Assembly: GCA_044229265.1 (NCBI GenBank) | Contig: JBGATK010000002.1 | Coordinates: 15,092 to 79,091, forward strand | Origin: Minisyncoccia bacterium | GTDB taxonomy: Bacteria; Patescibacteriota; Minisyncoccia; Phycocordibacterales; UBA9973 | Direction: 5' to 3' | Length of the DNA: 64,000 nucleotides | Shown: positions 39,619-41,495 of the stretch, in pieces | Position numbering within the stretch: the first letter of the stretch is position 1 | Layout of the letters: each line of letters begins with the position of its first letter | The notes under the pieces: generated by a model | Told to the model about the DNA's origin: nothing | The model's input: only the letters and a program-made list of their open reading frames with translations | Database searches by the model: none | Made by a program: the position numbers and the translations under genes

Positions 39619-41228
39619 TTATTAAGAGTTTGATCCTAGCTCAGGATGAACGCTGGCGGCGTGGATAAGGCATGCAAGTCGAACGGACTAGTCCCATGAA
39701 TGTTTGACAAACTTTGAGTAGCAATACAAGAAGAATGAATTTCTGGATTGGGTTTGCTAGTTAGTGGCGAACGAGGTAGTAATGTATAGGAACTTCCCCT
39801 TTAGTCTTGAATAATCTGTCGAAAGGCAGACTAATACAAGATGGTCTCGCAAGAGTAAAGATTTATCGCTAAAGGAAAGGCCTGTATGATATCAGCTAGT
39901 TGGTAGTGTAATGGACTACCAAGGCTATGACGTCTAGGGGAGGTGAGAGCCTGACCCCCACCGATGGTACTGAGACACGGACCATACACCTACGGGTGGC
40001 TGCAGTCAAGAACCTTCCACAATGGACGAAAGTCTGATGGAGCGACGCCGCGTGATTGATGAAGTCCCTTTGGGACGTAAAGATCTTTTGTCAGGGATGA
40101 AGTTTATTGACCGTACCTGAAGAATAAGAGGCTCCTAATCTCGTGCCAGCAGGAGCGGTAATACGAGAGCCTCGAGCGTTATCCGGAATTATTGGGCGTA
40201 AAGGGTGTGTAGGTTGTTTTGTTAGTCTTTTGTAAAATCCTTGGGCTCAACCCAAGATCTGCGAAGGAAACGGCAAAACTAGAAAGTGCGAGAGGTGTAC
40301 GGAACTCATGGTGTAGGGGTGAAATCCGTTGATATCATGGGGAACACCAAAAGCGAAAGCAGTACACTGGCGCATATTTGACACTCAAACACGAAAGCGT
40401 GGGTAGCGAATGGGATTAGATACCCCAGTAGTCCACGCCCTAAACGATCTTCTCTCGGTTTTCGGAGTATCGACCCTCTGAGAGCCTTAGCTAACGCGTT
40501 AAGAGAAGCGCCTGGGAAGTACGGCCGCAAGGCTAAAACTCAAAGGAATAGACGGGGACTTGCACAAGCAGTGGATTATGTGGTTTAATTCGATGGTAAA
40601 CGAAGAACCTTACCAGGGTTAGAAATCCTCGTGAAAGCTCTAAGAAACTAGAGCCCTCGCAAGACTAGAGGACAGGTGTTGCATGGCCGTCGTCAGTTCG
40701 TGGTTTGAATTGTACCCTTAAGTGGGCTAACGAACGCAACCCTCGTTGTGTGTTACAAGTGTCACACGATACTGCCCCCGCCTTTGTTCCTCTTTGGAGT
40801 AAAGCGTGTATGTTCGCTAAATTATTAGCGGGCCTGCCCGCCGAAACTACCCAAAGGGTAGTGAAGGCGGGGGAGGAAGGAGAGGATGACGCCAGGTCAG
40901 CATGACCCTTGATACCCTGGGCTACACACATAATACAATGGCTATTACAACGCGCAGCGACGAGGCGACTCTGAGCTAATCGTATAAAAATAGCCTAAGT
41001 TCGGATAGGAGTCTGCAACTCGACTCCTTGAAGTTGGAATTGCTAGTAATCGCGGGTCAGCTAAACCGCGGTGAATACGTTCTCAAGTCTTGTACTCACC
41101 GCCCGTCAATTCAAGGGAGCCGGGAGTACCCGAAAGCTCTTCATAAGGAGGGACTACGGTAAGCTCGGTGACAGGGAATAAGTCGTAACAAGGCACGGGT
41201 AGCGGAAGCTGCTCGTGGATTAATTCAA
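39619..41228 (+). rRNA. rrs: 16S ribosomal RNA (complete, about 1.6 kb), not linked to 23S/5S/tRNA
   Basis: agagtttgatcctagctcag 5' end; conserved blocks cctacggg(t)ggc(t)gcag, gtgccagcaggagcggtaatac, attagataccc, gcatggccgtcgtcag, gtgaatacgttc...ccgcccgtca, aagtcgtaacaagg; 3' tail ggattaattc lacks CCUCC. Confidence 0.95.
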
Positions 41229-41495
41229 TTTTGAAATATCTCACTTTTTATTAAGTGGGTGATCGAGTCGATCTTTTGTGCCACAATTGAGCACAAAAGA
41301 GTTTGGTTAAACTTAAAACAACATGACATTTGGAAAGACAAAAAACAATAAAGTTTCCTTCGTCGCTAAAGCTATGAAGGATAAGAATGGAACAAAACAA
41401 AGAACATATTCAATGTTTTCTCTAAAAGAAAAACTCTTCGCAAGAAGGGTTTTTCTTTTTACTGATTTTTAATTTTTGTTGTATAATATATGTAT

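Follow-up and report, generated by a model that had tools for sequence, protein, structure and literature searches.

The stretch of DNA analysed here, hereafter the window, is 64,000 nucleotides (nt) of contig JBGATK010000002.1 from a Minisyncoccia bacterium (assembly GCA_044229265.1), and our subject is its 16S rRNA gene, in which the anti-Shine-Dalgarno (anti-SD) sequence CCUCC is absent from the 3' tail. The genes in the window begin without Shine-Dalgarno (SD) motifs, and many of them carry a promoter -10 box a few bases before the start codon. The 16S gene and its flanks comprise the following features.

39278..39306, + strand: promoter-like site of the 16S unit, TTGACT-17-TATACT, from a consensus scan only
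39584..39612, + strand: 5' arm of a leader-trailer (processing) helix, 29 nt, 93% complementary to 41384-41412
39618..41230, + strand: 16S rRNA gene, full length with insertions of the type seen in the candidate phyla radiation (CPR); no 23S or tRNA gene follows
41194..41217, + strand: helix 45, intact and of Paceibacteria type, with a 10-bp stem CACGGGUAGC/GCUGCUCGUG and a GGAA loop, from the 3' alignment
41218..41230, + strand: 13-nt 3' tail GAUUAAUUCAAUU, from the RF00177 alignment
41224..41235, + strand: small tail hairpin UUCA-AUUU-UGAA, 4 bp, from folding; its 5' arm lies on the former anti-SD positions
41384..41412, + strand: 3' arm of the leader-trailer helix, 153 nt past the 16S end; the trailer between is without CCUCC
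41424..41459, + strand: predicted intrinsic-terminator-like hairpin, 16 bp and a T-run, ending the 16S unit
41458..41487, + strand: promoter-like site of the ddl-like gene, TTTACT-18-TATAAT; its -10 box ends 8 nt before ATG 41496
41496..42377, + strand: D-Ala-D-Ala ligase-like (ddl-like) gene, probably leaderless or nearly so

The 16S rRNA gene and its 3' tail

The Rfam bacterial small-subunit (SSU) model RF00177 matched the + strand at 39618-41230 over model positions 1-1533 with 1337 bits, against a gathering score of 50, and was the sole RNA family above its gathering score in the 64 kb. Where the consensus tail reads GAUCACCUCCUUU, that of the window reads GAUUAAUUCAAUU, and the model segment GAUcACCUCCUUu aligned onto these bases (41218-41230) with zero gaps and high posterior probability. 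The bases equivalent to CCUCC are AUUCA (41223-41227), and nearby in the tail GAUCA has become GAUUA, so that the gene lacks the canonical tail, i.e., one of the GAUCACCUCCUUA type with a CCUCC core after helix 45. The anti-SD is overwritten in place by substitution, and is neither deleted nor displaced.

The initial annotation had proposed, for an interval (41180-41235) that does contain helix 45, that the tail after this helix is without CCUCC and that no CACCUCC occurs in the following 250 nt. Both statements are borne out by the RF00177 alignment, which was the check suggested for them and which found helix 45 intact and CCUCC substituted, together with a scan for CCTCC on the + strand, where the next occurrence after 41147 is at 42843, just 5' of the SecA gene and past the rRNA terminator. 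A downstream exon or extension that would bring in a CCUCC is ruled out, with none before the terminator at 41424-41459, and between the 16S gene and the ddl-like promoter there is neither space nor sequence for a downstream anti-SD exon. Three other assemblies (GCA_964617005.1, ERZ4216102 and SRR28480387) match the window base for base from helix 44 to 70 nt into the trailer, and a local assembly error is therefore very unlikely. A low-threshold Rfam scan of 40900-41500 returned only sub-threshold chance matches, e.g., PyrR and NrrF.

With its promoter-like site, leader-trailer helix and terminator-like hairpin, the 16S gene looks functional. The leader-trailer helix looks to flank the gene as RNase III processing stems do, and the trailer fold is much more stable than its shuffles (z = -6.8). 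The gene stands alone between a YdjM-like membrane protein gene and the ddl-like gene, and no 23S, 5S or tRNA gene was found anywhere in the 64-kb window (tRNAs by ARAGORN, RNA families by Rfam).

Relative to the bacterial model, the gene carries an insertion of ~65 nt near helix 6 (about 39690-39755) and a second one at 40775-40873, which forms an extended hairpin of ~100 nt with 23-nt arms that are 78% complementary. Two common primer regions are also altered: the 515 region (40143-40164) reads GTGCCAGCAGGAGCGGTAATAC, i.e., GGAGCGG in place of the expected GCCGCGG, and the 1392 region (about 41086-41100) reads GTACTCACCGCCCGT, with T for the usual A, a change common to many CPR and Campylobacterota loci.

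Gene starts in the window

The gene set consisted of 67 non-overlapping open reading frames (ORFs) covering 87% of the window, called by a simple ORF rule with no trained gene finder; the later class counts, made after correction of two starts (to 17491 and 41496), were of 66 genes, and the ~90 gene starts given in the initial annotation were thus an overcount. The GC content of the window is 34% and its genetic code is the standard one. An alternative code with UGA as a sense codon, as in Gracilibacteria/SR1, was ruled out, the longest ORFs being the same under table 11 and tables 4/25.

Neither GGAG nor GGAGG occurs at positions -20 to -1 of any of the 67 starts, where 3.4 occurrences of GGAG would be expected from coding sequence, while GAGG and AGGA occur at one start each (2.6 and 4.1 expected, respectively). 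SD 4-mers have a frequency of 0.02 at the first ATG compared with 0.088 at internal in-frame start codons. The same analysis of Campylobacterota loci, used as a positive control, gave 0.33 compared with 0.04 at internal codons, with AAGG, AGGG and AGGA as the top enriched upstream k-mers, which demonstrates that SD motifs are detectable by the method used. The proposal that gene starts here are essentially devoid of GGAGG-like motifs therefore stands and can be strengthened, since SD enrichment analysis, recommended alongside it, showed depletion in the window. Pairing with the tail that is actually present offers no substitute: the duplex energy of the real tail with the -20 to -1 regions averages -1.66 kcal/mol, compared with -2.02 for shuffled upstream sequences and -2.11 for coding controls, and a new SD complementary to this tail is rejected, there being no energy gain over shuffles.

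What is enriched upstream of the starts is a promoter element. The top 5-mers in the window, TATAA (15-fold) and TGTTA (12-fold), are pieces of the extended -10 sequence TGnTATAAT, and in 12 of 67 genes the start follows the 3' end of a -10 hexamer at a distance of exactly 6 nt, where 0.31 would be expected per position, and in none at 4 nt. At a distance of 5-9 nt the frequency of the -10 box is 0.37 at starts and 0.018 at internal start codons. After the two start corrections, a -10 box precedes the start by 4-12 nt, most often by 6 nt, in 27 of 66 genes, and 11 of these 27 boxes have the TGn extension. Four examples of extended boxes are as follows.

33633..33641, + strand: TGTTATAAT, 6 nt before ATG 33648
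24661..24669, + strand: TGTTATAAT, 6 nt before ATG 24676
16657..16665, + strand: TGGTATAAT, 6 nt before ATG 16672 and 7 nt after the upstream stop
11086..11094, - strand: TGTTATACT, 6 nt before the ATG at 11079

Transcription usually starts 6 nt past a -10 hexamer. Because the boxes lie at this spacing, the mRNAs of these genes would begin at or near the A of the ATG, and the genes probably give leaderless or near-leaderless mRNAs; a -10 element at a start-compatible distance (about 6-7 nt), the mark of leaderless genes, is what we found in the window. Several of the near-start promoters lie in gaps of only 7-16 nt after the preceding gene, and many genes appear, from this arrangement, to have their own promoter rather than being read from polycistronic mRNAs. 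Nine further genes begin 5 nt or less from the upstream stop codon, and the rest have A/U-rich upstream regions with 3-15% G. The choice of start codon has no discriminating power, ATG being used by 25 of 27 genes with a -10 box and by 35 of the 39 others.

The geometry of the -10 box also bears on where two genes begin. Public calls and the longest-ORF rule start them at 41490 (the ddl-like gene) and 17485, whereas the -10 geometry favours the ATGs at 41496 and 17491. On look-up, no record was found of a ddl-like product beginning at ATG 41496.

The tail and gene starts in related lineages

The 16S gene is most similar, at 83-87% identity, to loci of Taylorbacteria, Nomurabacteria and 'Paceibacterota', and this identity, together with a type of helix 45 common to 45 loci, places the window in the Parcubacteria/Paceibacteria. 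Relatives were collected in two ways, i.e., by scanning a genome collection with a pattern lying upstream of the tail and hence blind to the anti-SD state, which yielded 120 loci from CPR lineages and Campylobacterota, and by scanning metagenomes with the helix-45 sequence alone, which yielded 119 usable tails (113 of them distinct). All 45 genome loci with the Paceibacteria-type helix 45 are without any CUCC in the tail, hence without CCUCC (example tails are GAAUAAUUCAAUUUGAA, GAUUAACUCAAAUUGAG and GAACAUAUCCAAUUUGGAA), and so are 117 of the 119 metagenome contigs with regard to CCUCC. Among these contigs two keep GAUCACCUCCUUU and one has GAUCACCUUCUUU; the three (L204, L232 and L158) may represent basal or intermediate states of the loss. 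Comparison with the 3' ends of related lineages, which had been suggested as a check, thus indicates from these sequences that the absence of the anti-SD is clade-wide and not special to one genome.

Outside this group, CACCUCCUU is kept in Moranbacteria, Magasanikbacteria, Berkelbacteria, Portnoybacteria and several Peregrinibacteria loci, while most loci labelled Peribacteria, and those labelled Gracilibacteria, have variants such as AUCUCC and ACUUCC. Variant tails occur in L006, L014, L018, L048, L049, L063, L104, L116-L118 and L124, in L059 and L123, and in L065, L071, L072 and L108; they read AUCUCCUUACCAGGGAG, ACUUCCUUACCAGGGAA, AUCGCCUUUCCAGAGGC and CUAUCUCCUUAU and belong to loci labelled Peribacteria, Peregrinibacteria or Gracilibacteria and to some unclassified ones. 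In the first three types the downstream arm tracks the anti-SD position (CUCC/GGAG, UUCC/GGAA and GCCU/AGGC).

The longest-ORF rule gave only 55-65% ATG starts in the higher-GC relatives and diluted the signals, and it was replaced by a first-ATG rule with internal-codon controls. On this basis the -10 box at 5-9 nt has a frequency of 0.18 in relatives compared with 0.005 at internal codons, in the genome and metagenome sets alike, and is most frequent at 6-7 nt; gene starts in the helix-45-matched loci are not enriched in SD motifs in either set. The suggestion in the initial annotation that translation here is SD-independent or leaderless is accordingly supported, as far as DNA can speak to it, by a -10 box 6 nt upstream of the start and by its replication in relatives. 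CPR loci that keep CACCUCC (L009, L021, L031, L035, L037, L039, L060, L075, L080 and others) likewise have no SD enrichment, with SD 4-mers at 0.06 at the first ATG and 0.10 at internal codons (110 genes, crude gene calls), and TAAA, ATAA and TTAA lead the k-mers upstream of their starts. SD-independent initiation in the CPR may predate the loss of the anti-SD.

The small hairpin at the former anti-SD positions covaries. Across Paceibacteria its arms pair as UUCA/UGAA, CUCA/UGAG, UCCA/UGGA, GUCA/UGAC and UUCC/GGAA, and in CPR lineages that keep the anti-SD the equivalent hairpin is CUCC...GGAG. In alignment-free contingency tests, UGA follows all 26 A-ending arms among the genome loci and 51 of 52 among the metagenome loci, and GGA follows every C-ending arm (12 of 12 and 26 of 26, respectively). 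When 64 CPR tails were aligned with a covariance model, each of the four pairs changed on both sides and 96% of cells paired, a value reached by none of 500 shuffles, and slid registers paired at 31-50% only; helix 45 in the same type of alignment is 99.7% paired across 61 distinct CPR sequences. The covariance model and the contingency tests took the place of an ungapped MAFFT alignment, which was unusable for pair counts owing to differing loop lengths, and a rigid-register test of the hairpin gave weak separation (0.49 vs 0.28). A cut at the position equivalent to that in E. coli (about 41230) would fall in the hairpin loop, and for this reason the hairpin is most likely a precursor structure for 3'-end maturation rather than for mRNA binding, one which has outlived the anti-SD. 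That it is instead kept in the mature 16S rRNA and docked in the platform cleft as a cis mimic of the SD-anti-SD helix seems unlikely; if it were so, these ribosomes would be specialised for leaderless and SD-free initiation, and the whole class Paceibacteria would be rewired to one promoter per gene and leaderless mRNAs.

Interpretation and other genes of the window

The explanation that best accounts for these observations, to which we assign a probability of roughly 0.8, is that the window comes from an anti-SD-less member of the Paceibacteria whose gene expression appears to be built around the missing anti-SD. Its source is the class Paceibacteria (Parcubacteria, CPR), with a functional 16S rRNA that lost the anti-SD by in-place substitutions, a loss that would be ancestral to a large clade. 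As the tail has no CCUCC, SD-anti-SD pairing cannot position ribosomes. In around 40% of genes a -10 or extended -10 promoter of the gene's own would end ~6 nt ahead of the ATG, with transcription starting on the ATG itself or only a few bases away, and the resulting leaderless mRNAs would be read by direct recognition of the 5'-terminal AUG. For the nine genes 5 nt or less past an upstream stop, termination-reinitiation is suggested, and the remaining genes would be initiated on unstructured, G-poor, A/U-rich leaders, possibly aided by an S1-domain protein encoded at 51957-53063.

Several points weigh against this explanation. The -10 boxes are partly expected by chance at 34% GC, but the positional peak and the contrast with internal controls speak against this. 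The starts come from a simple ORF rule, and many in the higher-GC relatives are probably miscalled. Leaderless transcription is inferred from promoter geometry in DNA alone. With regard to the hairpin, the covariance-model alignment used for the pair counts is fitted to the proposed structure, and the tail sequences are phylogenetically related, such that the Fisher and shuffle values overstate independence. Finally, the 64 kb is part of a genome, and the single rRNA copy and the absence of era, rpsU and rplA hold for the window only.

The alternative that survives best is SD-independent initiation on leadered mRNAs as in Bacteroidia, S1-aided on unstructured A/U-rich 5' untranslated regions, with the -10-like hexamers as by-products of AT-richness, a low GC content being just what the window has. 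It would suit the 39 of 66 genes that have no -10 box within 12 nt and whose upstream regions are A/U-rich and poor in G, and the protein at 51957-53063 (- strand; 368 residues, four S1 domains) could be an S1 serving SD-free leadered genes; it is nearest to the short, Firmicutes-type bS1 at 205-214 bits, below all NCBIfam bS1 cut-offs. Yet the hexamer is position-specific, peaking at 6 nt and missing at 4 nt, is often TGn-extended, exceeds its frequency at internal in-frame start codons of the same genes by 20- to 37-fold, and keeps its spacing in relatives of 45% GC, and as an account of the whole we judge this alternative improbable.

Much less probable again is a new, non-canonical anti-SD in the altered tail (e.g., AAUUCAAUU) that pairs with a new SD-like motif. 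Many AAAAUU-like upstream strings could pair with AAUUUU in the tail, but duplex energies are no better than those of shuffles or coding controls, the tails of relatives are highly variable (113 distinct among 119 contigs), and surveys found no compensating SD in any anti-SD-less organism (PMC6107228). Close to refuted are the possibilities of a pseudogene, of an artefact of assembly and of a true anti-SD joined from downstream, whether across an intervening sequence or because the mature 3' end is longer. CPR 16S genes, the present one included, often carry insertions, and contigs of metagenome-assembled genomes often break at rRNA genes. Yet this one is a full-length, high-scoring SSU match with helix 45 intact, its 3' end is the same in three other assemblies with no CCUCC before the terminator, and 45 genome and 117 metagenome sequences share its state.

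The loss of the anti-SD in this clade is itself already published. Tsurumaki et al. (2022; RNA 28:1041; PMC9297842) detected the anti-SD motif in no more than 48% of Parcubacteria; its absence overlaps to a large degree with that of uL1, and bS21 is often absent too. The window shares with the anti-SD-less subgroup of that study its lineage, helix-45 signature and a 16S tail without CCUCC(U), but its species is a different and undescribed one, and the earlier work dealt with motif absence and the overlap with uL1 rather than with gene starts, leaderless promoters or a tail hairpin. The leaderless-promoter signature, its clade-wide replication and the covarying tail hairpin are plausibly what is added here; a literature search on leaderless translation in Parcubacteria, Patescibacteria or CPR yielded no paper on the subject, with nothing for Parcubacteria and only unrelated mentions of Patescibacteria, its coverage being incomplete and no proof of novelty. 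The view in the initial annotation that such a loss is rare holds for bacteria overall, Amin et al. (2018; PMC6107228) having counted 128 anti-SD-less taxa in about 20,600 and seen a compensating SD in none of the 128, but not for this lineage, in which it is the rule and had been reported (PMC9297842).

Three other known systems are close. Leaderless-rich Actinobacteria (Mycobacterium), Deinococcus-Thermus and haloarchaea have in common with the window a -10-type element 6-7 nt upstream and no SD, and AUG, which they strongly prefer, is the usual start codon in the window with or without a -10 box, but they keep a canonical anti-SD, and SD motifs for their leadered genes, whereas in the window the anti-SD is gone and the transcription starts are read from DNA. 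Bacteroidia with SD-blind ribosomes, such as Flavobacterium johnsoniae (PMC6847099, PMC13000453), similarly have mRNAs without SD genome-wide and A-rich, G-poor upstream regions, and SD-independent initiation on the leadered genes of the window may be similar to theirs. However, Bacteroidia retain CCUCC, sequestered on the platform by bS21, bS18 and bS6, for rpsU autoregulation and 16S processing, and the window has lost it. Finally, Chryseobacterium, Elizabethkingia, Blattabacterium, some Mycoplasma, Carsonella and Hodgkinia (PMC6107228) have also lost the CCUCCU tail and have no upstream SD, but they belong to unrelated, mostly host-restricted or flavobacterial lineages, for which we found no dominant leaderless promoter pattern reported.

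A possible route to the loss comes from the literature. In the SD-blind F. johnsoniae, ablation of the anti-SD harms autoregulation of rpsU (bS21) and 16S processing, possibly via Era (PMC13000453), which binds GAUCACCUCC (PMC10582724) and whose gene most Paceibacteria are without (PMC12641178). The loss was probably permitted in a group that is commonly without Era and bS21 autoregulation, and these reports suggest by analogy that the anti-SD could decay here since both of its non-mRNA functions were already gone. No era, rpsU, rplA or der gene was found in the 64-kb window, which says nothing on the rest of the genome. The present data, taken with the reported losses of Era and bS21 in the group, agree with a view in which SD-blind bacteria keep the anti-SD for non-mRNA roles and it decays when these roles are gone.

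SD-anti-SD pairing is a textbook feature of bacteria, and the window presents a free-standing case of its complete loss that is typical of a very large uncultivated clade, while the promoter geometry offers a concrete, testable account of how start codons may be found in such cells. There are also practical consequences, as starts in such genomes are probably misplaced by gene finders relying on an SD, e.g., that of the ddl-like gene at 41490 instead of the likelier 41496, and annotation pipelines often truncate or mis-end 16S genes of this kind.

Other genes of the window include the following.

2621-4561, - strand: ribonuclease of the RNase J family (TIGR00649, 499 bits, above cut-off), which may act in the maturation of rRNA 5' ends
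8732-9715, + strand: deoxyhypusine synthase-like (PF01916, E = 2e-35), far below the NCBIfam cut-offs for deoxyhypusine/homospermidine synthases
11114-14320, + strand: unusually long protein of 1068 residues, its only recognisable part an LCAT-type lipase/acyltransferase domain
15857-20686, + strand: defence-like cluster with a MazF/PemK-like toxin, an NYN-domain protein, a MazG-like protein, an Abi_alpha protein and a Schlafen-group-3 helicase of 674 residues fused to an S24 peptidase domain
48247-50928, - strand: unusually long Mur-ligase-family protein of 893 residues, the first ~420 without a Pfam match
56670-57392, - strand: IS200-like Y1 transposase ORF, its TTG start from the ORF rule being doubtful
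60003-62151, + strand: array of pilin paralogues, i.e., five tandem small genes of the type IV secretion pilin family PF18895 (one also TrbC/VirB2), preceded by a protein of 430 residues without a Pfam match

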